A stretch of DNA of 37,494 nucleotides from positions 1 through 37,494 of the forward strand of contig JAUCBJ010006909.1 in assembly GCA_032718475.1 (NCBI GenBank), given 5' to 3'. Below, piece by piece: positions 11,483-37,494 of the stretch. A program made the position numbers and the translations under genes. Position 1 is the first letter of the stretch. The number at the start of each line of letters is the position of its first letter. This DNA is from Nemertoderma westbladi (taxonomy: Eukaryota > Animalia > Xenacoelomorpha). The notes beneath the pieces were generated by a model that saw nothing but the letters and a program-made list of their open reading frames with translations, searched no databases and was not told the DNA's origin.

Positions 11483-11557
11483 GTACTGTATCTTAAAGTG
11501 CTACAAGATTACGCCATGGACCATGGCGTAATCTTGCAGCACTTTAAGATACAGTAC
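11483..11557. repeat. 75-bp near-perfect inverted repeat (hairpin, MITE-like)
   Basis: Two 37-bp arms around a single A at 11520, with one mismatch. Confidence 0.9.
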
Positions 11558-11737
11558 AAGGAACAGGCCTACATATTGTTATTACACTTACACATAGTAC
11601 CGCAATTACATTAATTGTATGATAAGCTTTCCTTATTTAATATACATTCCTAACTAGAGAAAATGTTATAATAACAATATAATAATAATAACAATAACAA
11701 TAATTATGAAATCGTATTCTATTCTACTGTATTTTAG

Positions 11738-17208: not shown

Positions 17209-17546
17209 AGTAATTCCTTGTTCTGTTATCCTGGCCCAGGGCGGCAGAGTGCGGCCTTTATCTATGGGGCGGAAAAATGGAGTTCATATTCGTGTTCGGC
17301 AGGAAAAACTGGTCTAAATAATTCCATTTAATATTGCTTGATGGGATTCCTATTGGTTTGAGGGTACTTTAAATTACATAATTTTTTATGCAATTTAATT
17401 TCAATTTAGCCAATAATTTTGTTACAAATGATTAAGGCGGCAGTGTGCCACCCATGGCGTTCAAATGAAAGACTTAAAAATTTCGAAAATGGTTTAAAGG
17501 CGGCAGTGTGCCGCCTTTGGATGTAGGATAAGTAGTAATAGAGTTA
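17209..17546. mobile_element. Degenerate MITE with GGCGGCAGTGTGCCGCC subterminal motifs
   Basis: Three copies of the motif (~17240, 17436, 17499) and imperfect inverted ends (TTATCCT...AGGATAA). Superfamily is uncertain. Confidence 0.4.
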
Positions 17547-18029
17547 TCATACTCTTTATATAAAAAATCTCTGGTATGACAAGAAAATAAACCTTGGTCC
17601 GATCAAATATATTTTTCATGGTCCTTAGAAGTAAAAATTTATGTAACTTATCTTTGGTACGCAAAGGGTTTTAAAAATTTAGAATTCATATTTCATACTG
17701 ATAATTTTGAATTCATACAAAATTTACAAAATGTGCCGATGTCACATTGTAAATGCCGGTGCTGGTGCCGGTGTTTTTAAATGTTTAGCAATTGGCATAA
17801 TTCTATTTGAAAACCAAATAATGTAAATTTATGTGTACTGTAATTAGTTATAAAATATCACTTTCATTAGGTTTTGATTTGATTGATTGGTGTGGTGAAC
17901 TCGTGAACGATCGTATATTTGTGGCGAGGGTCCAGCGCAAACTCTTCGCAATCGTCAACATCTTCGAAGTGATCACTGACATCGTATCCCGCAAAGTACC
18001 TGTTCAACTGCTGTAATAGTTCATTCTTT

Positions 18030-18360
18030 AAGGGAGGGGGGGGGGGGGGGGGGTATACCCCCCTCAGGGTAAAATTTTCAAATTGTTGTTTCTTTATTTC
18101 ACCTAGAGCAGAATTTAATGAGGATTACAAATCTGAAAACCGCTTAGTGAGACCTCTTTCAGTTCTCGAGTTATCACTGTTTTTCCGTATGACTGTCAAA
18201 TAGTCCATCAAATTGTAAAAAAGACAGAAGACCGACAGACAGACAGACAGACAGATAGACTAGATTCCACCAAAAATTAAAACTGAAATCGGAAATCGGA
18301 AATGAAATCAGCGACCCCGAAAACCCCAGTAATGAACATTTTTGCTCGTTGGTGTGCATC
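18030..18360 (+). mobile_element. Helitron/Helentron-associated non-autonomous element (HINE-like)
   Basis: Internal (GACA)n microsatellite at 18235-18260, with GAAAACCGC..TTCTCGAGTTAT and CAGCGACCCCGAAAACCCC blocks resembling such elements. The call rests on motif resemblance only. Confidence 0.45.
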
Positions 18361-18783
18361 CTTCGTGCCAGAAATAATTAACCAACCAGAACACAAACAG
18401 CCAATTATGGAATATACATGTTGTAAGTCTAAAACAGAAAAGAACAAGTAGTGCGATTTGAAAAAACATAATTATTTAGATCCGGAACATTTCGTATATA
18501 ATTATATACATCATCAGCCAAAAAACAACTTGGAACAAGTGAATTATTATAATTATCACAGAAAATAACCTAAATTAAAATAAAGACAAATGTAAACAAA
18601 ATTAACAAATATTATGCGCTTGATAATGAAGAACTAGAATAATTAGAAAATATTAGATTATATAATTAATATATATGGTTACAGGGTTGGGCAGTATAAG
18701 TATAAGTTTAGTACAATAATGAAAAATTACTGAACAAATTTTAGAAAAGTTTACGGTACCGGTAGCAAAGCAAAGACAGTATG

Positions 18784-19318
18784 TAGGGTGTACGTACAGT
18801 AGAGTAGTAACAATAGATACAATACAGTAGGGTGTTATACAGTTGTAAGAATAGATACAGTACAGTAGGGTGTTATACAGTTGTAAGAATAGATACAGTA
18901 CAGTGGAGTAGTAAGAATAGATACAGTACAGTGGAGTAGTAAGAATAGATACAATACAGTAGGGTGTACGTACAGTAGAGTAGTAACAATAGATACAATA
19001 CAGTAGGGTGTTATACAGTTGTAAGAATAGATACAATACAGTAGGGTGTTATACAGTTGTAAGAATAGATACAGTACAGTAGGGTGTTACATTTGTAAGA
19101 ATAGATACAGTACAGTGGAGTAGTAAGAATAGATACAGTACAGTGGAGTAGTAAGAATAGATACAATACAGTAGGGTGTTACAGTTGTTGTAAGAATAGA
19201 TACAGTACAGTAGGGTGTTACATTTGTTGTAAGAATAGATACAGTACAGTAGGGTGTTACATTTGTAAGAATAGATACAGTACAGTGGAGTAGTAAGAAT
19301 AGATACAGTACAGTAGAA
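18784..19318. repeat. Composite minisatellite
   Basis: Interspersed ~36-39 bp units (AGTAGGGTGTTATACAGTTGTAAGAATAGATACAGTAC) and 28-bp units (AGTGGAGTAGTAAGAATAGATACAGTAC). Confidence 0.92.
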
Positions 19319-19380
19319 TATAGTAGATAATGTAACTAAAATAGATGTAGAGGGAGACGGAAGTGCCTTAAGTACATTTA

Positions 19381-19790
19381 GTGAGGGTCTACAATGAAGA
19401 TCGCAATGAAGATGCCTGTTGTGGCAGGGTTTTATCTTCCAAATTGAAACTACATTGCGATAATTGTGCCAGACTGAAAAGATTTTATACATCGCTATTA
19501 GTGGATAACCAATATGAAATTAACTTGCGTTTAGTGTATGTTTTGCATTGTATTAGTGTGGGATTTGAAGGAGGTAACACTTTATGCAGCATAATGGGAC
19601 TGCCACAACCTTCACAATCATTTATTGAACACACAAAATCATTACTTGTAGCTGCTAAACCTATTTCAGAAGCCTCAATGGTAGACGCAGCTAAGGAGGT
19701 AATAAAAGAAAATGGTGGAAATACAGATTATTGGAAGAGACAGTAACAAAATGCCCTGCAATATCCTACTGTAAAGTTTGTGAATCAAAA
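19381..19790 (+). pseudogene. Kolobok-type (Mutator-like domain) transposase fragment
   Basis: SSKLKLHCDNC..FYTS...YEINLRLVY....GFEGGNTLCSIMGLP..SEASMVDAAKEV, then an eroded YCKVCE. The catalytic DG segment is deleted. Confidence 0.6.
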
Positions 19791-21198
19791 CATAATCCGA
19801 CCTTCTCACCAAAACAGTAAACTCTAAGTAAGCGAATATATATTGCAGTATCGGTCTCTTATAACCGGTGAGGCAGAAAACAGTCTACGAACGGACAAAC
19901 TTCGATGAAACAAAATCCCGCGCAGCGAATCCTAAAATCAGGCTGACTCACTGACGGACTAAGGGGCTCGTATACTTTGCCGCGGTGTGATTTATATGGT
20001 TGGGATAGAGAGATGCTAGCTAGGTGCAGAAAGGTCTAACTAGCGGGCAAAGCGCAGTATGGACAAAAATTATTTTATATATTTTGAGGTGTAAATAATT
20101 TCTAACGCGTGTGAGTCTTGATTCTAAACAGTCAAAGTCAGTTTTGCTCCTTCACATATATAATTACTGGGTCCGGTATGCATTTTACAAATATTCTAAT
20201 TTTATAACTTGTAGGTCCAATACTCACGAATGATAAGGCTCCTTCCCCTTTTGTGTATTTCCAGGACTCAAATTCAGGCATAAGGTTAATACTACGCCCA
20301 GAATTCGGCAATTTAATTTACCAGGTCCCTAATACTAAGAAGAAATGTGTTAGTTTACTACAGTAGGCGTACAGTTACTAATAGCTAGCCTGGCGTTCTT
20401 ATCTAGAATTTTGGTTGCCTAGATGGGCACGGCAACTTCCTAACAGAATGTTGGCGGAGACACGGTAGATGTTAGTATCCCTAAATAGCCTCAATTTATT
20501 TTGCGCCTAGTGGTAAACTGCCCTACCGCCTGAACGGTACAATCCCAATTCAGGTAAAACACAGTAACCCTTCTAGCCTACAAGTTCAAATGCAGTGGAC
20601 ACCGTTGTACTACAAACAGTCACCGATGCACCTATACTTAGCAAGAGTTAGGCGTACAGTTTGCTGCACCCTACCAATGTGTATGCCTTGTACCGGTGTG
20701 CCTGCGTCCTATCTGTGTACTGGTATCTTTCTGCCTGATCTCCTCCTCTCCCCCCGTAGGAATGTGAAGGTCTACTGCGGGTTTTCTCTGAATTAAGACA
20801 GTACGGTCCCTAGATGTAATTTTTAGCGCACAGCGTGTCACTACCTCTACCTTCGATCTTTGGTCTTACACTTAGGTAGCAAGGCATTGAACGCTGTCTA
20901 ACCTTTCAGGCGATGGGCGAATAACTAAGAATGAATATTGTGGGTTGTCTCCTTCTACATTCCTCAGATGTTCCCGTTCATTGCTGTGGCCCGATGTCTA
21001 GCCTGCCATCCTGTCCCTCAGTTAGGTTCACCGTGGTAAAACATGATAGGAAAAGGGCAGATATAGCGATAATTCTGACTTTATTACAGATAACCAACAA
21101 TTATATTAATATAAACAATGTAATCTGAAATAACTAATGGATGTAAGAAGTAGAAGTAGATTGAATAAGAATAGATAACTAATGAACGAAATCGCACC

Positions 21199-21343
21199 TT
21201 TTATAGCAAATTTGTGCTGCAATCAATCGAGATAAATCTAGATTGTTCTATGAGTTCAAAAGGTTTTTAAAGATAATCATTGGTCCAGCGAACACGTATC
21301 TTGCACGACATTGGTTACTATCTAATAACTGCAATCCTATTGG
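21199..21343 (-). promoter_or_regulatory. Pol II promoter in the LTR (three CCAAT boxes plus TATAAAA)
   Basis: ATTGG at 21279, 21310 and 21339, and TTTTATA at 21199-21205, all oriented on the minus strand. Confidence 0.6.
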
Positions 21344-21410
21344 TTAATCTACCTTGAGCAAATGCAATTTAATTCGTAGCGGTTAATTTAAATGAGTTGA
21401 AACTCAGCAC

Positions 21411-21494
21411 AAAAAATAATTCACACTTACTAGGATTCGAACTCGATACCTACTACACGAATTTCCAACGCTTAACCGACTGAGCTACTGAACC
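21411..21494 (-). ncRNA. tRNA-like Pol III cassette (not a canonical tRNA)
   Basis: GGTTCAGTAGCTCAGTCGGTTAAGCG...GAGTTCGAATCC...TTTTTT gives an A box, a B box and a T6 terminator. The anticodon and acceptor stems pair poorly. Confidence 0.65.
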
Positions 21495-22699
21495 ACTTGA
21501 ACAATGTTATACAAATAGATATGGTAAATGCAAATGAGGACTTAATGTAATCTTTATAGCAAAGTTAATTCGAACAAAATAAAATTTTGAAAATCCACGG
21601 CATTTATAGAATATAATTCTATACCGCTCCATGAAAACAGGATATTATCGTGCATAAAATATACGGTTTTCACCAATACTAAATCAAATTATGGAATACT
21701 TGGGACGTACTTACATATTTACAAATTAAATCTCAACAATAATACCTTTACATAATAATTCGATACAAAAATAATTACAAATTCAAACTTTACGTATTTA
21801 AGGCTTTATTAAGTAAGTACAATATAAATCTAAATTAAATTCACCAAAATAAATCTATTGCATCTCAAATATTGCATAAATTCAAACAATCACAAATACA
21901 AATACTACTTAAATATAAAACAAATTGCATAAGTTCGGAATAAATCACAAGAAAGGCTCACAAGTCTTCCGTCTGTTCTTGCCTTTTATTTACTGTGAAT
22001 ACAAATACTGCTTCTTTATAAAATATAAATTGCATAATATTCGAAACAATAAATGGCGTAAGTTTGGAATGACTACAAATATAGCACTTTCTAAATATAG
22101 ATCTTTCTAAATGTAAATCTTTACTAAATATAGATATAAACTGCATAAGTTTAGAACAATATAAACTCTTTAGGCATCTCAAATATAAAATATAAATCTT
22201 TCAAATATAAATTCCTTCTAAATATAAAATTTTCTAAATTTCAAAATTGGAACAATACAAATACATAAATTTTGAATAATATAAATTGCATAAATTTAGA
22301 ACAATATAAATTGCATAAATTTAGGGCAATATAAATTTTAAACAATTCAATTTATATAAAAAATTACACGAACAATACAAAGAAAAACAATACATAAGAT
22401 AAACAATTCATAAGAAAGGCTCACGAGTCTTCCGTCCACTCCTTCCTTCCCCACTTGTGAGTTCTGAGTTCGGAATAATTAGTCCTTTCAAATATAACAC
22501 TTTATTTACCGCTTAGCTGATCGGGCTCTGCCGCGTCCTCGAAAACTGCGTATCGGTGATTTAGCTCGTGATATGGGATTTGTGGGGCGAGTCACTGGTT
22601 TACTTTGGACGTTGGGAGATGGTACGACTATTTCCTCACATATTCGTCTCTTAGTTATCCCAAATCCTCTTCCAATTCCTCGTGACCGATCGGTTGTAT

Positions 22700-25462
22700 C
22701 TACCGCTGGTAAAATGTCTGGGAAGCGGACGACGCAGACCCAAGAGAAGCTTGCGCCCCCTTTTGATCAGCTGGTATATGTCCCGATCCTCCTTGCGGTT
22801 CTCTGGGAAGCGAAACCGTATCACGAGTAATTCGAATAGTCGGTTCGTTTCCCCTTCGTTCTTCAACATTGATAGTTTTCTTTAATTGTTGGCCCACTTT
22901 CTGAACCCTTATGAACCTATGCTGTCCGCCCTCCCGAGGGTGACGTGCAGACGGCGCGACCGGAGTAGCTGGTATGTTGGTCGCCTCTAGGACCTCCTCT
23001 TCCTCGAATACGCTCACTCGTATACGTTTATGGTAGAACGCGGCTCGGTACGCCCATGCGACGGTTAACCAAGCTCCCTTGTTCCGCTTTTCCATTCGGA
23101 AACGATCAAATTCACCATAGGTGATACGATTAACGACTTTCTGGAAATTCCATGTATTCTTATTGTCAGGGTGTATCTGTAACAAGTATTCGCGCACAAC
23201 TCGAAATCCACTATCGTGAGGCAAAATATCAACTACCTCGATGAGTTCGTCATATTGTGGCATAGCGGAGATATATCCTTCCGACATCATAGTTTGGGGA
23301 TTTACTGCCCAAAATCCAAGATGCGCTCTCATCGGGAATCGTCTTCTTTGTGCCGATACATGTTCGTCAGCTAAATCTTCCCAATCATCAAATAGTTTTC
23401 GCACGAGTTTTACAGATTTGTGTTCGTAAGGTATGTCTCGCAATTGGCATTCAGATGCTCGATGTCCCTTTATATTGCAGTATGTGCATTGAGCCATAAA
23501 TCTCCAGCAAGTATAAAATGTATGGAACCCTTGATCTCCACACCATCCACAGATTAGTTGAGTCGTAGTAATGTGCTTTCCACTGCACTTTGTCGAATGA
23601 TGTCCAGCGACGCCACATTTACCACACATCGTATTAGCAGGGTACCACACTCGCTCATATATAAGATCTCCAATGGGTCGAGCGCTTCCTCCCACACTAT
23701 AGTCATAATCGTCTGGATCGATAGGTTGGTATGTTTCAGAAGGTTGTATGCAAACTACAGCATCTGTTGCTTCTAGTTGTCGAATCTCCGTCTGAGATTT
23801 CTTCGGGAGGTTCCTTTCAATCTCAAGAAGTTCCTCTAAAGGATCGTCAATGATCGTTGTTACTTCGAAATCATCACCTAAGTGACCGATAGGCGCACGC
23901 GTCTGCCGTGATTCGTCCGTAAGCTCCACGATACGTTCTCCTTCATAGGGTAACAATGTAAACATAGATGGTCTTTCGATAAGAGATCCCGCACAGCGAA
24001 GATACACGTCTCGAAATATACTAAATCCTGCTCGAGTGAAGGCATTACACTGAGCGTCGGAATTGTAGAAGGGTTCGAGAAACCGTCTAAACACATCGGT
24101 ATGAATTCTCCCTTCCGCGTAGAATATATGATCTTCTCCGAGACAAAGTGGATGTCTTTTAAGAGTCCGAGACACAATGTCGGCGACTAAGCAAACATTC
24201 ACTGATGACTCTACCGCTAAATAATATTGTAGTACCGCTCTTGGAGGTGAAGTAATAGCCCAATATACGCATCCTATCCATTTGAGCTGTGATTCAAACT
24301 CGTTTATATCTGGAGTATCACCTTCTCCATACGTTTCGATATACTTTGTTCTTTTACTTTCCTTGTAATCCCAATTAAACATCAAATAGGAAATGTATCC
24401 AGTTCCGGTTTTCTGAGTATCATACTCACGGAAGTATCCTTGTTCTATAGACCACAGTATAAGAGGTCCGGTGTCGACGTAAGGTGTCGGTAATCGGTCA
24501 TCACTGTCCGACATGCCGGCGAAGTCGCTAATTAAGTCCTCTCTTACTCCTGATCCAATCTTTACAACAGTTTTATCTAAAATCATATTTCTCACCATCT
24601 TTGGTAACATTCTAGCATCGATATTGCAAGCCTGGTCCATCTTCTTTACTATATTAGTGATGAAATGGTGCCGCTTGGTAGTTCCTGGAGTTATCTGCAT
24701 TTGCTTGTCGCTCCTTTGTCTACTGAAAACGTGCAAAACTCCGCCTGCCGCTCTAATTTGTATAGTCTTGGAGGTTAGACTCTGCTGATGGCTGCCGCCC
24801 TCGTTGTCATAAAACATGTAACCATTTTCCTGAAACGATCTAAACGTCCTATTCCATTCGTCCAATAATTCTTCCGAAGGTTGCCAAATCTTCTCTATGT
24901 CTTTCTCGTCCTCGAAACGAATGACTTTACCTTGCCAGTCCGCAGCGATATCTGTATCCGACTCAAAGGTTCCTGTTCCAATCCATAAGCGAATTGTTTT
25001 GGTTAAATATCCTTTCAGGTTACTCGGAGCTATATCAGCGCCAGCTCTATCCAGTTCCCTAAAGTCTTGAATATGAGGCGGAACATTATGCACGACCTTT
25101 TGTGTAATATGTCTACGTAAATCATATATCTTAACCATATCGCTTAGAACAACTGCAGGAAGAAACTCTAAGTTTGAAATGATTTCCGGATGATCCACAA
25201 TAGGTATTTCATACGTCGTATCTTGTCGAACTGGTATACTAATAGGGAAATTGAGTGTCGTACTCAATGGTTTCGTAGTCGAAGTACTATACGGTTGCAT
25301 TTCTCTTGTCCTTTCCGGAGATGCAATCTGTAGTCTCTGAATAACGTTTTGAGCAAAGTTTATACTTTCGAAAACTTCCAGTGTCATCTCCTTAGCTGAA
25401 GTTTGATCGTGTGACGTCCAATGGTAAGGTAGGCTCGCGAGTCTTCCGCCCCATTCTTCCAT
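22700..25462 (-). CDS. Accessory retrotransposon ORF: putative DEDD(y)-type 3'-5' exonuclease plus three CCHC zinc knuckles
   Basis: 920-aa open frame. Motifs FYDNEG (ExoI-like), QIRAAGGVLHVF, VVKIGSGVREDL (ExoII-like), YVDT and QYYLAVES (ExoIII-like) occur in the WRN/EXD/mut-7 order. Knuckles are CGKCGVAGHHSTKC, CGWCGDQGFHTFYTC and CTYCNIKGHRASEC. Confidence 0.7.
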   Translation of the reverse strand: MEEWGGRLASLPYHWTSHDQTSAKEMTLEVFESINFAQNVIQRLQIASPERTREMQPYSTSTTKPLSTTLNFPISIPVRQDTTYEIPIVDHPEIISNLEFLPAVVLSDMVKIYDLRRHITQKVVHNVPPHIQDFRELDRAGADIAPSNLKGYLTKTIRLWIGTGTFESDTDIAADWQGKVIRFEDEKDIEKIWQPSEELLDEWNRTFRSFQENGYMFYDNEGGSHQQSLTSKTIQIRAAGGVLHVFSRQRSDKQMQITPGTTKRHHFITNIVKKMDQACNIDARMLPKMVRNMILDKTVVKIGSGVREDLISDFAGMSDSDDRLPTPYVDTGPLILWSIEQGYFREYDTQKTGTGYISYLMFNWDYKESKRTKYIETYGEGDTPDINEFESQLKWIGCVYWAITSPPRAVLQYYLAVESSVNVCLVADIVSRTLKRHPLCLGEDHIFYAEGRIHTDVFRRFLEPFYNSDAQCNAFTRAGFSIFRDVYLRCAGSLIERPSMFTLLPYEGERIVELTDESRQTRAPIGHLGDDFEVTTIIDDPLEELLEIERNLPKKSQTEIRQLEATDAVVCIQPSETYQPIDPDDYDYSVGGSARPIGDLIYERVWYPANTMCGKCGVAGHHSTKCSGKHITTTQLICGWCGDQGFHTFYTCWRFMAQCTYCNIKGHRASECQLRDIPYEHKSVKLVRKLFDDWEDLADEHVSAQRRRFPMRAHLGFWAVNPQTMMSEGYISAMPQYDELIEVVDILPHDSGFRVVREYLLQIHPDNKNTWNFQKVVNRITYGEFDRFRMEKRNKGAWLTVAWAYRAAFYHKRIRVSVFEEEEVLEATNIPATPVAPSARHPREGGQHRFIRVQKVGQQLKKTINVEERRGNEPTIRITRDTVSLPREPQGGSGHIPADQKGAQASLGSASSASQTFYQR

Positions 25463-25597
25463 CTCACCTTTCTCGAAAGCCTTGTAGGCTCTGTATAGGC
25501 TAAGAGCTTCTTTCTTTTCGCGGGTTGACTGAGTCGCCTCGTCCAGTGTAAGTTCAAATACATCGGGTTCAACAACCTTAGGTGGGTAAACGACAAT

Positions 25598-26218
25598 TTA
25601 TCCCGCCTTTGGTCCAGTCATAGCGAATGAATGATATGGATTCGATAAAGGATACCCTCCTTCCTGGTAGCGTAGTTGTTGATGGTTCGAACACCTCGCC
25701 AATATCGGTTCGGGATTTTCCTTATTTAAACGCATCGGAATCGCATTTTGTTGTTCGCGCATACAAGCACCGCATTGATAATAAAGTTTATAAACTGAAA
25801 ATGCTTCCTTTGTTTCTCTATCGTCCCCTCGAGTTCGTCTGTAAAGATGCATTCCATCGAATTCATCGCGTACCGCAGGCATAGGTTCATGCGCCTTCAG
25901 GTATTGCATGGTATGATACAAACGACTAATTTCGGTATCGGGATCTTCGCTAATATCTCCCATATCACATAAAGCGTCGTACGGGTAAAGTTCATTGAAG
26001 GTTTTGCGTAAACTTTCGATTCTTTCATTTAACGCATTTTGCCTTCTCTTTAATACGTTCGAGTCAGATTTAGTCTTTGCGAGTTTCGCTGTACTTTCTG
26101 ATAAATCCTTTATTCCAAATATGGTGTAGTCTTTAGCTCCAAACCGTTCGAATGGCGCTGCTGCTTCCTCTTGGATATCATATCCCCATCTCGGCTCTCC
26201 ATGTATCCCCTTCGCCAT
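25598..26218 (-). CDS. N-terminal part of the accessory ORF (coiled coil, CxxC..CxxH), in frame with 22700-25462
   Basis: First in-frame ATG at 26218 (MAKGIHG). After the TAA at 25598-25600, 45 sense codons lead directly into the ATG at 25462. Confidence 0.65.
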   Translation of the reverse strand: MAKGIHGEPRWGYDIQEEAAAPFERFGAKDYTIFGIKDLSESTAKLAKTKSDSNVLKRRQNALNERIESLRKTFNELYPYDALCDMGDISEDPDTEISRLYHTMQYLKAHEPMPAVRDEFDGMHLYRRTRGDDRETKEAFSVYKLYYQCGACMREQQNAIPMRLNKENPEPILARCSNHQQLRYQEGGYPLSNPYHSFAMTGPKAG

Positions 26219-26880
26219 TATTTGAGGTATGGTTACATAATCATTACTACTAGAGGGAATACAACAGAGTTTATTGTTAGTTGTGAGGAGATGTGAGAGT
26301 TTTCGTTTGCCCTTTTGGCTCGACAACGCTCTAACCTCCTACCCATAGCCTAAGATCTAGGGTTTCTTTAATGACACGCTGTTTCTTATCTAAAAGTTTT
26401 GCCGAAACAAAAACGAATTTGGGCTAAACTGGCTGTGAGTCTAAAATACTCACTTTTTGATCCCAAACTATTATCAGAAAATAAGCAATCAAGAATTAGT
26501 AATAAATATAGGGAAGTCTATTATTTGACGTAACTTATTAAAACAAGACCGTGTAAAATTTAATTAAATTTAAGAAAGGCTCGCGAGTCTTCCATTCTCT
26601 TGTTTCTCTAATTTTAAGTTCCACCCGACTGTACCCTGAAATCTATTCACTGGAGAAAATTTTAAAAATTTTTCAAATCCAAATTGGATTGTCTAAAATT
26701 TCGAAAATGTCTCAATATTGTGAGTTCCAAGTAGAATTCCATTTCTTATACCTACAAATCCCGCTCCTATGTGACACATAAGGGTACTACCCTCAATGTT
26801 CACATATAAAGACAATGGAATTCTACCGCTGTCCTTACTACAGTGTACAGGTACGTGGAAATCTATTTGTAAACTCCTTA

Positions 26881-29136
26881 CTATTTACTAACAGTAGTTG
26901 GAGACTTGTAATCTCCAGACTTGTTTCGCGTCTCTTCAAGAAGTACGAGACGTTGAGTCAGTCTGTCTACTGTACGACCGTCAATTGTCCGTACCGTCAC
27001 AGTTCTTGTCACTCCATCCATAGATGGATGTGTGTCTAAAATTACACCTGTTATCCAGAAGCGTCTTTTTAGATTCACTTCTGCTAACAGCACGTGATCT
27101 CCCACTCTTAAAGCGCGAGTTTTGTTGTACCAAGCAGTTCTGGCAGAAATAGAGGGCAAATAATGGTTTTGCCATATTTCCCAGAATTTGTTAGCTAGTA
27201 GTTGCGTGATTTTCCACGCTTTTCTACCGTAGCTATCGCCTTCTATTGGAATAGAAATAGGCGTTAATGTGGTCGGTGCCTGAATAAGCAGGTGTGCCGG
27301 TGTTAAAGCAAACTGGGATTGTTTGTCATCGGGTACTAATACTATTGGTCTAGTATTTAGTATTGCCTCGATTTCAACAAACAATGTTGTCAGTTGGTCG
27401 TCTGTCAAGATGTGGTTTACTGGAATTACTTTCGCCATGGCTGTTTTTATAGATCTAATCAATCTCTCCCAGACTCCGCCTCTCCATGGACTATCTGGAG
27501 GATTAAACTTCCAAACAATCTTGTAAGGACGTAGTTCGTTTGAGATTTGATCATGATCTAATTTCTTAAAGGCTCTAGCAATTTCATTTCGAGCACCAAC
27601 AAAGTTTGTACCTTGGTCTGAGTACAAGCATTTTACTAGTCCGCGTCTAGCGATAAATCGCCACAATGCTAGTATAAAAGCGTTGGTGGAAAGATCCATC
27701 ACACGTTCAATATGAACTGCCCTACTGGACATGCATGTGAAAATCAGTCCCCAGCGTTTCACTAGTATACGTCCACGTTTCGTATGTATGGGACCAAAGC
27801 AGTCAATTCCAGTCTCTGTGAAAGGTGGTCTGAATGCCTGTAGTCGTGCTTGTGGAAGTTCACTCATTTCTTGGGTACTTATTCTAGAATGTACCTTCTT
27901 ACAAATAATACACATACGTGTCACTGAACTTAACGCTTTACTGGGTCTAATTAATACAAATCTTGTACGTAAGTAGGAAAGACAGTGGTGTCTTCCAGCG
28001 TGTTTAAGATGTAAGTGTGCATCCAGTATCATTGCACGTTGTAATTCGTGATGTTGCGGTATTATTATCGGGTATCTAAAATCAGTATTAAAGTCAATGT
28101 TTTGAAGCCGAGATTTATGACAAATTAAGCCATTATAAATTATCGGACTCCAACTCAATATTGGTGACGACTTGATTGGTTGACCTTGACTTATGGATGT
28201 GAATTCGCGTGCGAAATATCGCAATTGGTAATGGCGAATTAATTTAATTTCACATCTGTCAATCTCAGTCAATGTGAGTCGACGTGTAAAGTCGCATTTG
28301 CCTTTAACGTATTGTACAAAACGTACAATCCATGCTAATTTTCGGCACGCGTTGGTCCAAGAATCTGTCAGGTTTACAATGCGGTCGACGTAAGTATTTA
28401 TGACGTCATCAGGTAAGTCAATGGAGAATTTGGAAGGTTTTGTTTTACTAGATAGGCCCACGAGTCCGCCGGTAAGAATTCCCTTGTTGACTGTTGATCC
28501 GTCCGGGTCTACAAGTAATTTGTCTTTCTTCGTCTTCTTACCTTGATTGTCAGTATCTTGTAAGTCGATCCCTAATGGTGGTTTTAACTCTATGGGATCA
28601 CTGGGTTTAGGTAAACTTATTTCTGTGCCGATATTAATCCCAGGTCTCACTGTAGGTTGTAAGGTTGGTATGTTTCTTGAGCGTAAAGTAACACCTGTAT
28701 TTATATTTGCGTAGGTACTACCCACATCTGTAATACATGAGGTTTCACTGTACTTATGGTTACTCAAGGGTGTCAAATTTGGTAGTTTGTCAATAGAAGG
28801 CCGCTCCAATAGGGAAACTGCGGCTTTACTATGTGTTAGTGTGTTACTAGTGTCTGGTAGAACATCTTGTGATATGTCTGGTAAAATGTTTCGCGGAACT
28901 TCCGGCGAAACGTCTAGTGACATGTCTGGCAAAATGTCTGGTTGACCGTCTGGTAACGTGTCTGGTTGACCGTCTGGCGATACGTCTGGTAACATGTCTG
29001 GTTGACCGTCTGGCGATACGTCTGGTTGAGAAAGGCTCGCAAGTCTTCCTGCCTTAATTTTGTGAGTTATATTCTTCCATATCGCCTTTGGTTTCTTCTT
29101 AAGTTTCACCGTTGTCCTTTTCTTTGCTTTACCTTT
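26881..29136 (-). CDS. BEL/Pao pol C-terminus: long linker plus integrase
   Basis: SWTNACRKLAWIVRF, H-H-C-C zinc domain (AHLHLKHAG..CIICKK), TGIDCFGP, SDQGTNFVGA, PWRGGVWERLI, and the DUF5641-like FWEIWQNHYL..GVTRTVTV end. The 5' side is cut by the second element. Confidence 0.93.
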   Translation of the reverse strand, partial: KGKAKKRTTVKLKKKPKAIWKNITHKIKAGRLASLSQPDVSPDGQPDMLPDVSPDGQPDTLPDGQPDILPDMSLDVSPEVPRNILPDISQDVLPDTSNTLTHSKAAVSLLERPSIDKLPNLTPLSNHKYSETSCITDVGSTYANINTGVTLRSRNIPTLQPTVRPGINIGTEISLPKPSDPIELKPPLGIDLQDTDNQGKKTKKDKLLVDPDGSTVNKGILTGGLVGLSSKTKPSKFSIDLPDDVINTYVDRIVNLTDSWTNACRKLAWIVRFVQYVKGKCDFTRRLTLTEIDRCEIKLIRHYQLRYFAREFTSISQGQPIKSSPILSWSPIIYNGLICHKSRLQNIDFNTDFRYPIIIPQHHELQRAMILDAHLHLKHAGRHHCLSYLRTRFVLIRPSKALSSVTRMCIICKKVHSRISTQEMSELPQARLQAFRPPFTETGIDCFGPIHTKRGRILVKRWGLIFTCMSSRAVHIERVMDLSTNAFILALWRFIARRGLVKCLYSDQGTNFVGARNEIARAFKKLDHDQISNELRPYKIVWKFNPPDSPWRGGVWERLIRSIKTAMAKVIPVNHILTDDQLTTLFVEIEAILNTRPIVLVPDDKQSQFALTPAHLLIQAPTTLTPISIPIEGDSYGRKAWKITQLLANKFWEIWQNHYLPSISARTAWYNKTRALRVGDHVLLAEVNLKRRFWITGVILDTHPSMDGVTRTVTVRTIDGRTVDRLTQRLVLLEETRNKSGDYKSPTTVSK
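28850..29028. repeat. Coding tandem repeat (12-bp GTCTGG-based subunits, 36-bp higher-order unit)
   Basis: Encodes (QPDVSPDGQPDMLPDVSPDG...) PDxx repeats. Confidence 0.9.
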
Positions 29137-30944
29137 TGTTACGGTATATGGCGCTGTATCCACAGTATTAGTCCGTTATGCAGTATGCAATATTAGTCCG
29201 TTATACTGTACGTAATATTAGTCCGTTGTGCAGCATAATATTTTAGATAAGGCATAATAACGCAGTGGTATTTAGGTAGGGAAATCAAAACGCCCATATA
29301 TTTTGCATCCATTCATTTTGTATAGTATGTAGCCCTACCTACGTAATTTTGTATTAGGTTATATGTAGATAGTTCCAGGGTAAGTTTATTCGGACCCTGG
29401 ATTCCGTGCTTGCTGATATTAGCTTTAGTAGGGCTAGCATATAGGGACGCTGTCCTGGCCATTCAGCAGCCAGAGACGTGAACCATTACCATATATGGTA
29501 ATAATTCGAGGAAAGGGAGCAAATAGGGCTACAATCCGGCCTCCTTATTGGACTAGCTGCTTCCAGGTTGGTCTAGTGCTAGCACGGACTGGAGAGCCAA
29601 TAAGAAAGCGATTGAGTCACCCTATTGCATCACCCCATCCGGATCACCTATAAATTGGCGGTGTGCCGGTAGAGCCTCACTCTTATCACATGACACCTAG
29701 CCCTAGCACCTGTCTTACTGTTTTCTTGATACTCGTATTTTCTGCAATTTGCTAATTTGATTAATTTCTTGAAATGATTTGCTAGTGCGATTACTTGCTT
29801 GTGTTTCTCAATAATTCCTTCGATTACTGCTAATTACAATTGAACTATGATTTCTACCCCTTGATTGATGGTTCTATGTGATTCTTTCTGCGCAATAACC
29901 CCAAGGGATTCCTGAGACTGTCGGACTTTGTGATTTGCATGCGCCGCTACGGTAGCTATTAGCATCATGGAGGGCTAAGGCGCCAGTGGGCGGTGGGCGC
30001 ATCGGGGGGTTGAGCGACTAGGAGGGAGCGGAGGATTCAAAGGCGAGCAACGCTGGCGGGGGGTCACCGTTGCGGTCGGGCAATTTGCATTGTAGCGTGG
30101 GGGCAGCTCGCTGGTACAGTAATTAGGGGGCTGATGATCCAGGTTTTGTCTCTATTTAGTATTAGGGGGGCAGGAATTGGGTTAGTTAGGAAGCCTAGAT
30201 GTACCCGGGAGAGGTCTGCGTGCTTTACAATTGCGAATTGCATGTATTGCGAATTATTATATTGTGCTGTGTAATTGCTAATTGCGTGCATTGCGGATTG
30301 TACAATTGTGAATCGCGCATTGCGAGATGTGATTGCTGACGCTGATTGGTGTGTTACTAAAGTGTGCCTAAGATTACGAAAGCTTAGATAGGCGCTCTTT
30401 TCCCTTTGATTGATTTCTATCTCTTAGTTTACTGTAAATAATTACTGATTAGGTCAAAGTAATACAGTATTTTAGGCTGTTACATATTTGTGACTGTAAT
30501 TAATTAGTAAAATTAAGAATTAGTACGCAGCATAGCGGAGAGTAGCTAAGGTAATAATTAGAGTACCGTAAACTATTCACGCTGAGCGGTTATTTGAATT
30601 AGCGGGCAATAAGCTAGATAGCAGTATTCAGTACGCAAAACGCATTAGTAATTTGCTGGCCTAAAGCCAGCCGCAGACAAGTTTAGTCCCACTATAGGTA
30701 TTAGCCCTAATAAAAACTGTACCACTTTGATTATTTTAAATATTCTCGCATTCACACATTCCGTTAGGGAACCCCCAGTATTCGCGATTAGAAAAGACGT
30801 AGGCATTGGCGTACTTTAACAGTAAGATTAGGCGTAAGAATATACTCTGAGTGTAAAACCTCTCACACTCGTTTTAAGTCAGCTTAGGGAGCCGATTCGG
30901 GTTTGTTGTTTTGGTTATTCCCGCGTGGCTCATATATTCGAACA
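29137..30944 (+). mobile_element. 5' LTR of the plus-strand BEL/Pao element
   Basis: Begins TGTTAC where the minus-strand pol is interrupted and has three 25-bp repeats (29166-29238). CCAAT elements at 29547 and 29597, TATAAAT at 29649 and Inr-like TCACTCT at 29677. The proposed end TTCGAACA is followed by TAGCTCTCTATCGAG, a weak tRNA-Asp PBS resemblance. The 3' boundary is tentative. Confidence 0.6.
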
Positions 30945-31174
30945 GTTAGCTCTCTATCGAGTAATTGGTAGAGAAAGGAACAAGAAATTAGCAGGAGCCG
31001 TAGAAAATTAGTAAAACATATTAGCGGACGGCAGGTTAGCGCCATCTAACGGTAAGTAGCGGTTTTGTATTTAGCAGCCCCTCACATTAGCAATAATACG
31101 CTCCTGATTGCCCTGTCTAATAAATAGAGCAGTTTTGTGTCTTTATTGGTTAGGCCGGGGTAGTTTGTTTAACA

Positions 31175-31490
31175 GTAAAGCACGTTTTGTTTTGCTGTAC
31201 TGTGTACAGTAAGACAGAGAGTATATTCTTTTAGGCTGTTAAATTAGATTACTGTATTATTTACTGTACTGCGTATAGTAGGACAGAGAGTGTATTTTTA
31301 GGCTAGTTTAGATTACTGTATTCACTGGTCGCTGGTACAATAGTACAGTAGTACATTAGGCTGATTGCTGTTACTGCGTACGGTAGAAGGACATTTGTTT
31401 GCCGTACCACACACAGTATCATTAGGCTGTTAGGTTGGTGTACTGTTTTACTTACTGTACTGCATACAGTGGATGTACGGTAGTGCGTTT
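31175..31490 (+). repeat. Degenerate tandem repeats in the 5' leader
   Basis: About five ~60-70 bp units containing TTAGGCTG..TTACTGT..ACTGTACTG..TACAGTA. Confidence 0.6.
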
Positions 31491-32320
31491 TTGCTAATTG
31501 CGAATACAGCAGTTCCTTAGGCCTTAGGGCAAACAGTAATTAGTAAGTTTTTTGAAAATTTTAGCTAGGTTTGCGAGAATTCAGTTTCGGTCAAAATTAT
31601 TTGTAAAATTCTAGAGTTTTGTACCGGTATGTTAGGTAACCGCTTAGTTATTTTATACCATCTGGAGATACATGGCAAGACGGAACTTCTGAGTTTGGGG
31701 TTCGTGTGGGTCTGCGGGTTCGGTTTGCAATCAGCGAAGGGCCTGAATCTTTGGACGCGGACGTGGAATCTCACAGCAAACAAGGTTAGTTGTTCTGTTG
31801 GCACCATAGTGTTTGTGGAAGCAGTAAAAAATTATCGGTTGTTTAACTGCGAGGCTGAACTCAATTTATTAGTTAGGATATTTAGGTTTAGCCGGCCATG
31901 GTTTTTTGAATCGCTCAAGTTAGAGAGAGAGTTAGAGAGAGTCGCAACCCGAAGATGTAGCCACGCGCTAGTGGATACATATAATATTTGAAATTAAAAT
32001 TACGTTGATTAGAGCTATATAAAATTAGAAATATTCGGGTGGCAAGTTTATTTTGAATATTTTGTATTAGATTCAAAGTTATTTGTGCTATACCGGTATT
32101 TAATGCTATAGTAGCTATATAATAATATTTTTGTTTAAATATTGTGCTAGTATTTGCTATAACTATACCCCATTAAATTCACAATATTGCATTGCGAATT
32201 TATTTGACATTTGGACCAACTGATTATTTGACAATTAATTTGACCGTATTTCGGTTAAATTATAATTATATCTCGAACTTTTGCGAGATATTTTGCCGGA
32301 AGGCAAACATTATTTAGACT

Positions 32321-35300
32321 ATGAGTGTCTCAGACAAAGAGGCACTAGAGGAAAGCTATGAGACGGCGGCCGGACCGCCGACTGACGATAGCGTAAATGT
32401 TACTGTTGACGACAATGCCGACTATGACGACGCAGCGAGCGACGCTGACGTAAGTGAACAGGAGGACGAGACAGTGACTAGTGAGGAAGAAGAGCTACCT
32501 CAGGTAATAGTATTAGGATCCCCTACCGCTACTGTAAGGAAGGATTGTACAGCAACCCGGACAGAGGTGAGTGATAGGGAGGGTAGTGTAGTAGAAGCGA
32601 GAGCCCGGAGCCCGGTTTCCAGACCTGTGGGTATGGTAAGTGCCGTGGTCCCAGCGGCTGTTAGGAGTACCCGTAGTTCCCGAAATAATCCTTCAAGTCC
32701 ACCGAGTGTAAGTCAGGTAAGTGATAGAGAGTTCGACATTGCGATAAAGAAGAAACTTCGCGCGCATGCCGGACATATAACTCGGACGACGGACAAGGTA
32801 AGGAAGATGTTAGCTGACTCAGCGAACATCGGGAGGGTAGAGTTAGTAGAGATTAGAAGAGGATATAACTCAGCGTTATTCAAGCAGACGGAGGAGCTTG
32901 CAGTCCTAGCGAAGAAGGCAGTAGAGTCTCAGTCGAGCGACGTGGCGACGAGGATTTACGACAGGGTTTTAGCAGCCTTGTTGGAGCACCGCGAGTTATC
33001 GGAGCGATTCCGACGAGTTAGGACGGAGAACTGGCTGCTATGGGCATCACAAACGCAGGCGACTCAGGTGACTGACGCAGAGTTGAGAGACTTAGTGGAG
33101 CGAGAAGAGATCCAAGATAAAGAAGAGCGCCGTTATCAGAGGGAAGTTACTAGCTGGCTGATGCAGAATGGAGTGGTGGTACCAGGCCAGGTGCTACCGA
33201 CGACGTAGAACATTCAACAGAGGACGTTGACTCCACCCGACGACGCATCCAGAGACAGTGGCGATTCCCAGGTTAGTCACGCGCGAGGGAAAGTTATATG
33301 TGCTAGATCCCTTGTTTCTCACAACTCGGCGGAGGAGAGAAGACGCCGACTGGACGAACAGCAGGCGGAAGTTTTGCGTGCATCGGAAGCACGGAAGGAA
33401 GCCGAGCGGGAACGGGAGCGCACACGTAAGTTAGACGCGGAGTTACGAGAGTTGGAGGAGATAAGTAAGCGCGAGCGAGCGGAACGCGAGCAAAAGGAAC
33501 GCGAACTCCAAGCCGAGCGCGAGCGCAAGGAACTCGAACGCGAACAGAGAGAACGCGAACTCCAACTCGAACGCGAACGCAAGGAACTCGAACGTGAACA
33601 GAAGGAACGCGAGCTTCAACTCGAACGCGAACGCAAGGAACGCGAACTCGAGATCGAGAAAAGAAGACGCGCGTTGTATGAAGAGAAGGCGCGAGTGGAA
33701 GAAGAGAGCGCAGCGAGACGAGCGAGGGAAGAAGAAGAACGTAAACTGGCGCAGTTGGAAAGTGCGAGATTAAGTTTAGAGAGCGAAGAACGGACTAGGA
33801 AGGCGAACGAAATCGCCGAGAAGGGGATGCGAATGATCGAAGAATGTGGGGCGAGTGTAGGGACTGAGTTGCGAGAACTGTTCGCACTGCAGAAGGCCGA
33901 ACAGGAAGCGAGAACTCCGACCATACGCGAGTCGACGACGACCAGAATTCCTATACCCGGTCCAGCTATTACGAGTACACGGATCGCTAAACCATTCTCT
34001 ACATATCGCACGCCAGTTGGTATTAGTGCTTCACCCATCGCGCAGAATCCACGTCATCAGAACATCGCACCACTACACACCGAACACGACGATGAAGAGT
34101 TTAGAGAAACTCCGACGGGACGAGTATTGGGCGAACCGAACCCGCGGGTTTGGAATACGCGGACGGAGCGCCGACCCAGTTCGACGGAGAACTTCCGGGT
34201 TAAACCGGAAGAGGGATCATATGAGAGACAGCGGATTACTCAGATAGAGCCGACTATACAACAGAACCCTAGCCAGGAATTTATTACGAGGGATGAGTTA
34301 AGTGCTAGTTTAGCGCAAGCTATATCGCCACACATCCAACCTATAACGGACATGCTTAGCAACCTACGGTTAAAGGAAGCAGCCCAGGTAAGAAGTAATT
34401 CAAATCCTAGCAGGACTGAGTTAGATAAAGTTCAGCCTAGTCAACGAGTACGCATATCGGAGGAGACTATACCACATAGACCTCAGGTAAGGACGCCTGT
34501 CCCGAATATTCATAATCCCAACTTCGAAAATTCGGCCGAGAAATTTATACAAGATGCTTGGGTCAGGGCCTCGGCGCGCAAACCATCGCGAGCACTAAGG
34601 ACTGACACCGAGTCAAGCGATGAAGAGGAAGAAATGAGACGTCAGAAGTCCCGAAACTATAAGGAAAGAAGGACCGACGCGGAGCAGGTAAGTTGGAACC
34701 ACCGGGAAAGGACCAGACTTAATAACCCTGCAGAACTAAACCATTTGTTAACCCGGAACGACGCAACCCTTAGGGACATAGGTAAGTTTGCTGCTAGGCA
34801 AGGACTGCCGACGCAACAACCCCAGAAGTTTATGGGCAACCACAAGCACTGGAGGACCTTTAAAACCTATGTCGACGAGCAGCTAACCAACAGCACCTTT
34901 ACTCCCAACGAGAAGTTCAACTATTTGCTTCAGATGCTCCATCGAGAACCTAGAGCCATTGCTGATAACTTCGTCGGCAATGAAAGAGCATTCGAGTTAG
35001 CAATGAAGACGCTTAGCGACATCTACGGAAATAAAACCAAGATGGCGCAGTCGATAGTGGAAGACTTGGGTAAGGGCGGAAGGATTACAACTCCGTTAGA
35101 GCTGTTGAACTTAGCGAACGCCATTTCGAACGCATTGGACATCTTGAGGACGGTGAATCTACCTCATCATGGTGATCACGCCGAAGTTTTAAAGAGCGTA
35201 ATAAGACGTTTAAACATGCGTTACAGACAGAAATGGCGCAAATTAGAGAATAAGTTGGAGGGCCAAGGTAAAGTATTGACACTTCAGCATATTCATGACA

Positions 35301-37494
35301 TGATAGCCACAGACGCAGTAGCAGAGATGAAATCAAACTTCTCAGAAGAGAATATGAGGGAGTCTAAACCTGTTACCGGTAAGTCTATGGTAAGTTTTGA
35401 CGATGACAGGACCACTGTGACATTTAACTCAGTAGACAGATATAATTCGAGTACCCCAGCCTTTAGATCAGACTCGCGAGTATGGTCAGGTGAGCGGTTA
35501 GATAGACCTAGGTTAAAGCAACAGGAGTTGCCGGATGGATTTGTAGGTTGCCAATACTGTTTACTAAAGGAGGTAAGATCTGACGACCATAAGTTAGATA
35601 GTTGCAGACGGTTCAAAGAATTAAATTCGGAACAGAGAAGAGTTCAAGTGCGGACGCTGGACACCTGTTGGGCATGTCTTGCGCCAGGCCATGTACGGCG
35701 GCAGTGCCCGAACAGCAAGGACGGATGCATGGAATGCGGCAGACTACATCACAAGTTGCTACATGCGGATTTCCATACCCCAACGGACCGTTACTTACAG
35801 CGAAATCCTCAAAGGAAGAGGAGCAAAGAACCCGTATCGATAAGGAGGAATACGTACACTGGCATCCAGGACGATGGTTACCAACCAGGTTCGTCGGACG
35901 AGGATGGCGAGTCGAGCGCGAGAGAAGTGACCTGCCAAGGTTTCACCGCGGATAGTTCATCGACCAGCGCGCGGACGTATTTATCATCGGCCACATCGGA
36001 AATATTTAGCGTGATTCCGGTGAAACTCACTGGCGATAAGGGATCGAAGAGAATATATGTGATGTTGGACACTGCGTCCACATTATCTTATATCGACGAG
36101 GAAGTGGCGAGAGCTGTTTCTAGCTTCCAGGACGCCGAGGAGATCCAAATAGAGTTGAAGTCTATGCATGGAGTAGGTGACCTCAAGGGACACAGAATTT
36201 CGGTAGAACTAGATTCCCTACTTCCGAGAGACCAACACACTCGACAAGAACGGAAAGCTTTGCCATTGGACGGATTTAAGTGTCTAGCTATGAAGGGATT
36301 CGGCAGGCAGTTAGGTAAGGTGCCGCCGATGAGTCCCATAGCACAGGAGTATTTTGACAAGCTCAGGATACCCAGACACCAGGTAGGTTATAGGAATGTT
36401 TCTATGTTGATTGGTGCAGAACAGCTGATCGCACACCAGATATGGGAAACGAGACCAGCTGAGCCGCATGTCAATGGACCACATGCCCATAGGACCATAC
36501 TAGGTTGGTATACACGAGTACCCATGTCTTATGAGTTTACAGGTGGCGACAAGCCAATGAATAGATACGACGAATTACAGCCTATAACTCAACCACCGTT
36601 AGTAGAACCACCAGACATAGACGAGTTTAGGAGAACCTGTATTGACCACTATAGTGACTTTAGCGAGTCGGACGAGGAGTTGATTCCCGATAATGTTAGG
36701 TTGTCGGAACCACTTCACAATGACCGGACAGATAGTGAACCCGAGGACTACTGTTATCAGACCCGTGGGTCTGGTTCAGCGGCCCACGCTACCTATCTGA
36801 CTAACGTTTTGACTTATACAGACATAGTGGAGGGTCAAGTGGCTAAATATCGAGACCTAGACATTTTCCAATACAGTGAGGAGGAATTACAGAAGGAATT
36901 GATACGCCAGGACCTCGAGACAGGAGCCAGAACCGTCGAATGGCTGGATAGGGACGCAATGGAACCCGGTGGATATGACCTAGCCATGTCTACTGATGAG
37001 AAACGGTCGCTGGAGATGATGGAAGATACCATACGTCTGCTACCGACTGGACATTTTGAAGTTGGAATGTTGTGGCGTCGACAACCACCTAAGTTGGAGA
37101 ACAACTACAACTTAGCCTTGAAAAGATTAAACGGAGTAAGGGCTCGGTTGTTGAAGAATCCAGGCATTAGGGAGAAGTATTGCGCCCAGATCAACAACTA
37201 TTTCGCCAAGGGATTTGCTGGGAAGGTAGAGGACCCTAACTTAGTGACAGACCAGACTTATTACCTTCCACACCACTATGTGACTCACCCTGACAAGCCA
37301 GACAAGGTCCGAGTAGTCAACGACTGCGCAGCAGTCTATAGAGGTATGTCCCTGAATTCAGAGTTGATGGATGGTCCCAACCTGAATAACTATTTGATTG
37401 GAATACTGTTGCGTTTTAGACAGCGGCGATTCGCATTTACTTGTGACATCGAGGCGATGTTCCACCAGGTAAGAGCCTGTAAGGCAGACCAGGA
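32321..37494 (+). CDS. BEL/Pao gag-pol polyprotein (3' incomplete), with one in-frame TAG at 33206-33208
   Basis: The same frame continues after the TAG to the window end (spot-checked at several points). It contains DUF1759-like KFMGNHKHWRTF..EKFNYL, three knuckles (CQYC..H..C, CWACLAPGHVRRQC, CMECGRLHHKLLH), protease MLDTAS at 36062, and Pao RT YLPHH..KVRVVNDCAA..GPNL..LLRFR..DIEAMFHQV. Confidence 0.92.
33481..33655 (+). repeat. Coding tandem repeat in gag (E/R/K/Q-rich)
   Basis: Repeated GAACGCGAA(CTC/CAG/CGC) units encode (EREQKERELQLERERKEL)n. Confidence 0.9.

Follow-up and report, generated by a model that had tools for sequence, protein, structure and literature searches.

Third open reading frames (ORFs) of the DEDDy exonuclease type are known from bdelloid rotifers, in the long terminal repeat (LTR) elements Juno and Vesta and in Athena/Terminon (PMC5408684; PMC6431247). 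The Belpaoviridae profile of the International Committee on Taxonomy of Viruses (ICTV) describes only gag, pol and env for BEL/Pao retrotransposons (PMC8742986), and orchid Ty3/gypsy elements have captured another enzyme, an RNA demethylase (PMC9289625). Here, we analyze a stretch of 37,494 nucleotides from Nemertoderma westbladi (Xenacoelomorpha; assembly GCA_032718475.1, contig JAUCBJ010006909.1, positions 1 to 37,494), called the window throughout, in which a long minus-strand frame, ORF3, follows a BEL/Pao integrase and is predicted to encode a DEDD-type nuclease domain followed by three CCHC zinc knuckles. A preliminary description, made from the sequence alone, had noted that rotifer elements are reported to carry DEDDy extra ORFs, which is borne out for the LTR retrotransposons Juno and Vesta (PMC5408684; PMC6431247).

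The nuclease-like domain and its reading frame

The D-x-E, GVRED and YYLAVE motifs and the three knuckles that the preliminary description had picked out by eye lie on the minus strand where it placed them (24808-24800, 24550-24536 and 24226-24209; knuckle starts at 23626, 23551 and 23488). None of 20,000 shuffles produced two or more such knuckles; the middle one reads C-x2-C-x5-H-x4-C, and Pfam zf-CCHC matches the third alone (E 0.094). Both the D-x-E of ExoI and the aspartate of ExoII, as found across the DnaQ-like/DEDD superfamily, are present. A HMMER scan of 1.84 billion representatives with ORF3 returned three matches, of which only P0124 (558 aa, from an ENA contig of 7460 nt) covers the nuclease region (E 5e-5); P0123 and P0125 matched the knuckles only and were dropped as homologs. 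P0124 aligns with ORF3 over ~500 residues at 24% identity, shares its nuclease motifs, knuckles and post-knuckle motif, and carries a canonical D-x-E, D and Y-x3-D. A word-index search with ORF3 residues 200-780 among proteins of near length gave no match, the same kind of search with a two-sequence profile returned just P0124 itself, and scans of metagenome and viral contigs found no locus related to ORF3.

Profile comparisons point to the DEDD fold. Specifically, 120 bacterial loci fetched by an exonuclease motif yielded 77 proteins, and all six of those tested belong to PF01612. The profile of this set ranks P0124 first and ORF3 second among 146 sequences, with scores that are weak (7.9 and 5.3 bits) but higher than any from 500 shuffles of either sequence (at best 4.7 and 2.4 bits). 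When a profile of the window protein and P0124 was compared with these 77 exonucleases, one hand-picked family and not a library, HHalign gave 84% or 95% depending on the anchor sequence, against at most 21% across 100 column shuffles and 38% for ORF3 alone. In the ESM Atlas, queried without steering, 25 of 30 feature matches of the ORF3 domain fall in a PF01612 set, with a best score of 0.92 and 164 shared features; the top three of the matches are unnamed clusters. For P0124, 10 of 10 structure rows come from PF01612-bearing clusters (TM at most 0.73 by row, scores below the naming bar), and its closest cluster by features, a lead only, is Euglenozoan and combines PF01612 with zf-CCHC (0.87).

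Structure prediction followed by structure comparison, proposed in the preliminary description, gave a divided answer. The unguided single-sequence AlphaFold model of the domain is poor (pLDDT 31.5). A guided model, from an alignment in which P0124 and 10 known exonucleases served as seeds in a register set by hand, reached a mean pLDDT of 54, with values below 50 over 191-236, and matches EXD2, NrnC, Nibbler, WRN, RICE1, EXD1, Egalitarian and TbRND (best match Z 11.3, rmsd 3.8 over 170). Because known exonucleases seeded its alignment in a chosen register, this model is partly circular and no more than compatible with a DEDD fold; a 44-row alignment that misplaced two motifs was left out of folding. 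An RNase H-like alpha/beta core is thus recovered by HHalign and the Atlas, with the guided model consistent but circular, and the ORF3 domain very probably takes a DEDD/WRN-like fold.

The proposed family assignment needs narrowing. The PF01612 cut-off was not reached, with no match for ORF3 to E 1 or for the domain and P0124 to E 5, and where canonical DEDDy proteins carry Y-x3-D in ExoIII, as does P0124, the window has Y-x3-E. The window glutamate falls on the P0124 aspartate in 35 of 96 trial alignments; it pairs with the aspartate of P0124 and of the bacterial proteins at once in 2 of 96. Since the last acid differs and the register with bacterial members is rare, the domain is, judged by its motifs, a DEDD-fold variant and not a canonical DEDDy member; confidence in the ExoIII assignment is somewhat lower than in the fold.

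The frame itself runs from an ATG at 26218 to a stop at 22700, co-oriented with the BEL integrase and 662 nt downstream of the integrase stop (26881). The co-oriented frame of ~1170 codons first described here therefore stands as to position, strand and length; it is not open, since a stop codon at 25600-25598 interrupts ORF3 in this copy. Four public runs (X1, X3, X4 and X5, the last of which may be DNA) supplied contigs for comparison with window positions 17500-37494; because all pieces are contigs, the depths given here are contig depths and not copy numbers. At the internal stop codon, contigs differ from the window over 17665 of 17665 units of depth in X1, 14194 of 14243 in X3 and 290.5 of 290.5 in X4, and X5 has no cover. 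Since contigs from three studies disagree with the window there, the stop looks private to the window copy. ORF3 is not an env gene, because it has no membrane-spanning stretch: no transmembrane or signal segment was found (best 19-residue hydropathy 1.39), and profile-library searches gave no envelope or fusogen family, in keeping with the initial impression. The tail, described at first as basic, is net basic, if only mildly so (21 Lys + Arg versus 13 Asp + Glu over the last 130 residues), and ~450 residues ahead of the nuclease domain have no family assignment.

Contigs of three DNA studies cover ORF3, spacer and integrase, in X4 at depths that are alike for all three (290-524), and long X4 pieces with depths of 200-524 traverse ORF3 (24273-26159), spacer and integrase end. 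Among 26 of the 32 longest pieces listed, out of 40,867, with duplicates counted once and flank and boundary pieces left out, gaps per substitutions amount to 6/681 in ORF3, 1/113 in the integrase, 19/462 in gag and 63/185 in non-coding DNA. Pieces up to 17% diverged show no gap, and the 12 indels listed, of 346, are all non-coding. Given the rarity of gaps in ORF3 relative to non-coding DNA and the non-coding position of the listed indels, these counts indicate that the ORF3 frame is kept under selection. In turn, X1, X3 and X4 contain joints that omit 2.0-2.2 kb of ORF3, and in X1 and X3 the depth of ORF3 is about half that of the integrase. Many copies thus seem to lack ORF3, which would make it an accessory gene whose product could be provided in trans. 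The available data support ORF3 as an accessory gene beside the integrase of a many-copy BEL/Pao-lineage retrotransposon family. Two findings that the preliminary description had named as arguing against such membership, a lack of the frame in other copies and flanking target-site duplications or terminal inverted repeats of its own, did not appear: the frame is present in other copies, and ORF3 is not bounded by separate terminal repeats. In X4, depth over positions 22500-24100, which take in the 3' end of ORF3 and the neighboring 3' region, is 5-15 times that of the remainder, which suggests a non-autonomous derivative keeping just that part.

Activity, target and competing explanations

The fourth catalytic position of ORF3 is Glu, where Asp is canonical. 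The preliminary description took this as a sign of a possible pseudo-nuclease, a step that Glu alone does not imply because RICE1 is active with Glu in that position; its last Asp is Glu187, and mutation of Glu187 abolishes or severely lowers activity (PMC5451212). The rotifer ORF3s carry a different catalytic variant, DEED (PMC5408684). Because three of its acids are canonical, its tyrosine is kept and its homolog P0124 has the canonical set, ORF3 is probably catalytically active despite its ExoIII Glu.

In the mechanism that we propose, the three knuckles would hold single-stranded RNA and present its 3' end to the DEDD-type domain, which would chew it back, and the protein would act in trans on short silencing RNAs of the host, leaving the element protected. 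RNA rather than DNA is suggested as the substrate by analogy with TbRND, the best-studied protein with this layout, in which the zinc-finger domain greatly enhances both the binding of RNA and the trimming of its 3' end (PMC7797062), and arenavirus ExoN offers a precedent for an exonuclease turned on host defense (PMC7968707). Given activity, host small RNAs would account for about half of the active case and would be the likeliest target because the gene seems to be dispensable, to act in trans and to be kept by a many-copy transposon. We assign this reading, an RNA-trimming nuclease acting in trans on host small silencing RNAs, a probability of roughly 0.37, ahead of trimming of the element's own primer, RNA or cDNA and, after that, of a non-cutting adaptor; small-RNA counter-defense and primer/cDNA trimming had both been put forward as possibilities in the preliminary description. 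Few transposon-encoded factors against small-RNA silencing are known in animals, and most of these are hypothetical. The most elaborate version, in which a knuckle-guided nuclease disarms PIWI-interacting or small interfering RNAs (piRNA/siRNA) in trans within an element of more than 17 kb that has a family-wide two-strand design, is a long shot.

Several observations weigh against the preferred reading. No Pfam, NCBIfam, PHROG or PDB sequence match was found for the ORF3 nuclease, P0124 is the sole full homolog found, the HHalign target was a single chosen family, the unguided model was poor and the guided one not independent, and the ExoIII register against bacterial proteins is unstable. 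RICE1 is itself unusual in being metal-independent, which makes its Glu a loose precedent (PMC5451212), and the rotifer study reports no clear tie of DEDDy ORF3s to copy number (PMC5408684). The missing curated family and the failed unguided model, along with Atlas scores near the lead-only range, would also fit a domain that is no DEDD exonuclease and resembles one by chance. Profile scores above those of all shuffles, and a motif order and spacing that are right in two proteins just 24-27% alike, speak against this and make it the least probable of the alternatives considered. Hardly better placed is the idea that ORF3 is a separate insertion or passenger that does nothing for the BEL element, whether it was captured from the host or is a mobile element in its own right. 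It could account for a frame of its own after a 662-nt spacer, for the halved depth in X1 and X3 and for the far deeper 3' part in X4; however, ORF3 has no flanking direct or inverted repeats, a 16-nt motif is present in ORF3 and its neighbors alike, codon use is nearer the integrase (r 0.50) than the plus-strand gag-pol (0.25), and the frame is preserved in copies up to 17% diverged.

The more serious competitors accept the domain and its membership in the element. An active nuclease might serve the element's own replication, with the knuckles bringing the protein into the particle, where it would trim the tRNA primer, the 3' end of the genomic RNA or cDNA overhangs. The knuckles are like retroviral nucleocapsid fingers (P0124 has a weak PDB match to HIV nucleocapsid, E 0.18), the fold has DNA-trimming members, and 3'-end processing of element RNA was the role first suggested for the rotifer DEDDy ORF3s (PMC5408684). 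Yet such a step is not generally needed, because the gene set of BEL/Pao elements in the ICTV profile is limited to gag, pol and, in some members, env (PMC8742986), and deletion joints through ORF3 are common, which leaves this role doubtful. Nor do we favor a pseudo-nuclease that has lost catalysis and binds element RNA, perhaps at the 16-nt motif, to localize or shield it in the manner of Egalitarian or EXD1; we hold it to be unlikely. Glu does replace the ExoIII Asp, the ExoIII codon is absent among the 40 listed of 1946 differences, which weakly suggests a family-wide Glu, both EXD1 and Egalitarian are among the structural matches of the guided model, and the rotifer study describes EXD1 and Maelstrom as derivatives without activity (PMC5408684). 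Against an adaptor stand the retention of three canonical acids and the tyrosine with a fourth position that is still acidic, the fully canonical set of P0124, the function of RICE1 with Glu in the last position (PMC5451212), and a 16-nt motif that folds no better than shuffles.

Architecture and surroundings of the element

The integrase frame is homologous to at least 120 BEL-type polyproteins, at 33-41% identity among the matches listed, and DUF5641, Integrase_H2C2 and DUF1759 give the locus the BEL-type sequence of Belpaoviridae (Table 1). The first ~225 codons of this frame are low-complexity and match no BEL polyprotein; coding tandem repeats of 12-nt units (28851-29026) lie in this N-terminal extension. 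Upstream of the integrase on the minus strand there is no reverse transcriptase (RT) or RNase H, as the 120 BEL polyproteins match only to 28509. The BEL/Pao retrotransposon of the preliminary description is hence upheld by its integrase (DUF5641 E 8e-20) and not as a simple intact element. In Belpaoviridae, gag, protease, RT, RNase H and integrase share one strand; here, the integrase (minus) and gag-protease-RT (plus) face apart over 3.1 kb of non-coding DNA, and because they occupy opposite strands the window copy is not filed as an intact member.

Three explanations of this split compete. A second BEL element inserted head-to-head near 29138 leads tentatively, at a little under even odds, because of a TGTT start near 29138, a TATA box at 29649 and a third-position GC of 0.45-0.58 versus 0.28-0.37 for the integrase; the plus-strand part has its close match in X4 at a tenth of the depth, as would fit two families. 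A family-wide two-strand design is unlikely, and an inversion or misassembly in the window copy more so; both draw on like depth on either side of the integrase/gag junction in three of the four runs (X1, X3 and X5), on a diverged gag in X4 at the depth of its integrase, and on trees of 56/112 homologs in which the plus-strand RT and the minus-strand integrase both stand beside P0086 and P0072 (support 0.81-0.91). The trees do not decide between one and two elements, since identity and distance ranks of RT and integrase are uncorrelated (rho -0.11, 0.13) and long-branch attraction is possible. The gag TAG at 33206-33208 separates frames of 296 and 1428 codons; as it is not among the listed differences from public contigs, readthrough or a shared break is possible. 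Further tandem repeats, of 54-nt units (33482-33651), encode a charged coiled-coil region of gag.

Downstream of ORF3, the 3' LTR named in the preliminary description shrinks to a candidate region at most (22438-19752), with no LTR pair within the window and the other end outside it; members of Belpaoviridae have paired LTRs of 0.2-1.2 kb and a target-site duplication. The two non-coding blocks of the window are unrelated to each other, and a generic primer-site pattern has eight matches in the window, all unconvincing. The candidate region ends near 19752 beside a cut Mutator-like transposase fragment (19372-19746, plus strand; PF20700 E 1.4e-8), which is interrupted where the repeated element begins and which X1 and X3 contigs continue differently from the window; depth rises near 19.5-19.8 kb in these two runs. 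Within the terminal region, a tRNA-like stretch at 21360-21535 (minus strand) resembles an A-box and a B-box in places and is flanked by short direct repeats AAATGCAA; contigs of X3 and X4 have loose ends at 21369, and the stretch is probably a small tRNA-derived insert. ARAGORN called no tRNA and Rfam nothing above family thresholds in 19000-33000, so that neither called this stretch. The 16-nt near-palindrome is spread over integrase frame, spacer, ORF3 and 3' region and occurs nowhere else in the window. Two of its copies lie in coding frames and both encode GRLASL, each copy follows a purine-rich run on the minus strand, and other element copies bear further variants; an RNA hairpin was rejected (z 0.03 to 0.87). 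Farther away lie a minisatellite of 28-39 nt units inside a 176-nt higher-order repeat (18776-19316) and, just after a 75-nt near-perfect palindrome (11483-11557), an open frame of 579 codons (11710-13449, plus strand) with no Pfam match, whose motifs, judged by eye, resemble those of a DNA transposase.

Table 1. Features of the window around ORF3, with coordinates on the 37,494-nt stretch
Feature	Position	Strand	Basis or remark
ORF3 accessory gene	22700..26218	-	1172 codons, one internal stop (206 + stop + 965)
ORF3 internal stop codon	25598..25600	-	contigs of three studies disagree with window
Predicted DEDD/DnaQ-like (WRN/EXD/RNase D-like) 3'-5' exonuclease domain, with insertions	24131..24931	-	profile, Atlas, guided model
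ExoI motif D-x-E	24800..24808	-	pairs with D of P0124 and bacterial PF01612 proteins in 96/96 alignments
ExoII aspartate (GVRED, 24550-24536)	24536..24538	-	96/96 alignments
Candidate ExoIII Y-x3-E (canonical Y-x3-D)	24209..24223	-	pairs with P0124 Y-x3-D; bacterial register unstable
Three CCHC zinc knuckles	23447..23626	-	motif scan; shuffles
Post-knuckle motif without name, common to P0124	23303..23401	-	alignment; no Pfam family
Candidate polypurine tract, TG directly after	22439..22452	-	inference; no second LTR for comparison
Candidate 3' terminal region (LTR-like)	19752..22438	-	CCAAT boxes, TATAAA 21205, AATAAA 21085; extent unproven
16-nt near-palindrome, five copies in same orientation	21955, 22418, 25432, 26578, 29034 (span 21955..29049)		0.01 expected by chance
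BEL/Pao integrase frame, 764 codons	26881..29175	-	DUF5641 E 8e-20, Integrase_H2C2 E 9e-4
Non-coding spacer, integrase to ORF3	26219..26880	-	covered, with integrase end, by X4 and X3 contigs
BEL/Pao gag-protease-RT start, leaves window	32321..37494	+	DUF1759 E 3e-9; in-frame stop 33206-33208

Comparison with described systems

Like ORF3, the rotifer third genes are enzymatic and not envelope-coding, have a DEDD-type fold, an altered catalytic set and no transmembrane segment, and are of unproven activity; the altered set is DEED there, whereas ORF3 of the window has the ExoIII change. ORF3 further differs from them in its BEL/Pao integrase, its three CCHC knuckles and its 1172 codons. The rotifer clades are Ty3/gypsy-like. 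In PMC5408684, the words CCHC, zinc knuckle and finger are absent, and a Cys-His-Cys motif is mentioned in two ORFs. No rotifer ORF3 was among the matches of the general ORF3 homolog searches, and a direct alignment with the rotifer ORFs was not made.

With TbRND (PMC7797062; PDB 7c4c), ORF3 shares a DEDD exonuclease followed by tandem C-terminal zinc fingers, a likeness of architecture only. TbRND belongs to its host, has four fingers and acts on U-rich guide RNA, which it trims, whereas ORF3 is transposon-borne, carries long additional ends and has an acidic linker ahead of its three knuckles; the relation is one of analogy rather than demonstrated orthology. Order and spacing of ExoI, ExoII and ExoIII, along with the structural matches, recall WRN-exo, EXD2, Nibbler (mut-7), EXD1 and NrnC of PF01612; from this group ORF3 departs in lying under Pfam detection, in an identity of 8-17%, in the change of the last Asp to Glu, and in insertions of ~30 residues ahead of ExoII and ahead of ExoIII. 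RICE1 (PMC5451212; PDB 5v5f) likewise has a DnaQ-like fold with the last Asp changed to Glu and is active on single-stranded RNA; in contrast to ORF3, it is a metal-independent hexamer without knuckles, and the ExoI Glu and the tyrosine are missing from it as well.

Among Belpaoviridae (PMC8742986; PMC3118150), the locus shares a BEL integrase with DUF5641 and a third gene where some members have env. It differs in that this third gene is nuclease-like and not a glycoprotein, in an integrase that faces away from gag-protease-RT, and in a repeated span of at least 17.7 kb, if this is one element, against a norm of 4.2-10 kb. The word exonuclease is absent from the main text of PMC3118150 and PMC13524379, and the supplements of the former contain 7,861 BEL/Pao sequences, which may bear on how new the present case is. 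No BEL/Pao exonuclease ORF was found in the literature searched, which was mostly open-access and did not cover Repbase or Dfam; as far as that literature goes, the BEL/Pao host and the knuckle fusion appear new beside the rotifer DEDDy third genes.

Taken together, a many-copy family that keeps an exonuclease-knuckle gene in frame offers a concrete, assayable protein, for which TbRND provides a well-studied mechanistic model. The split two-strand layout, if family-wide, would constitute a new LTR-element architecture. The locus would add BEL/Pao elements to those of rotifers as carriers of DEDD accessory genes and would point to repeated capture of this enzyme class.

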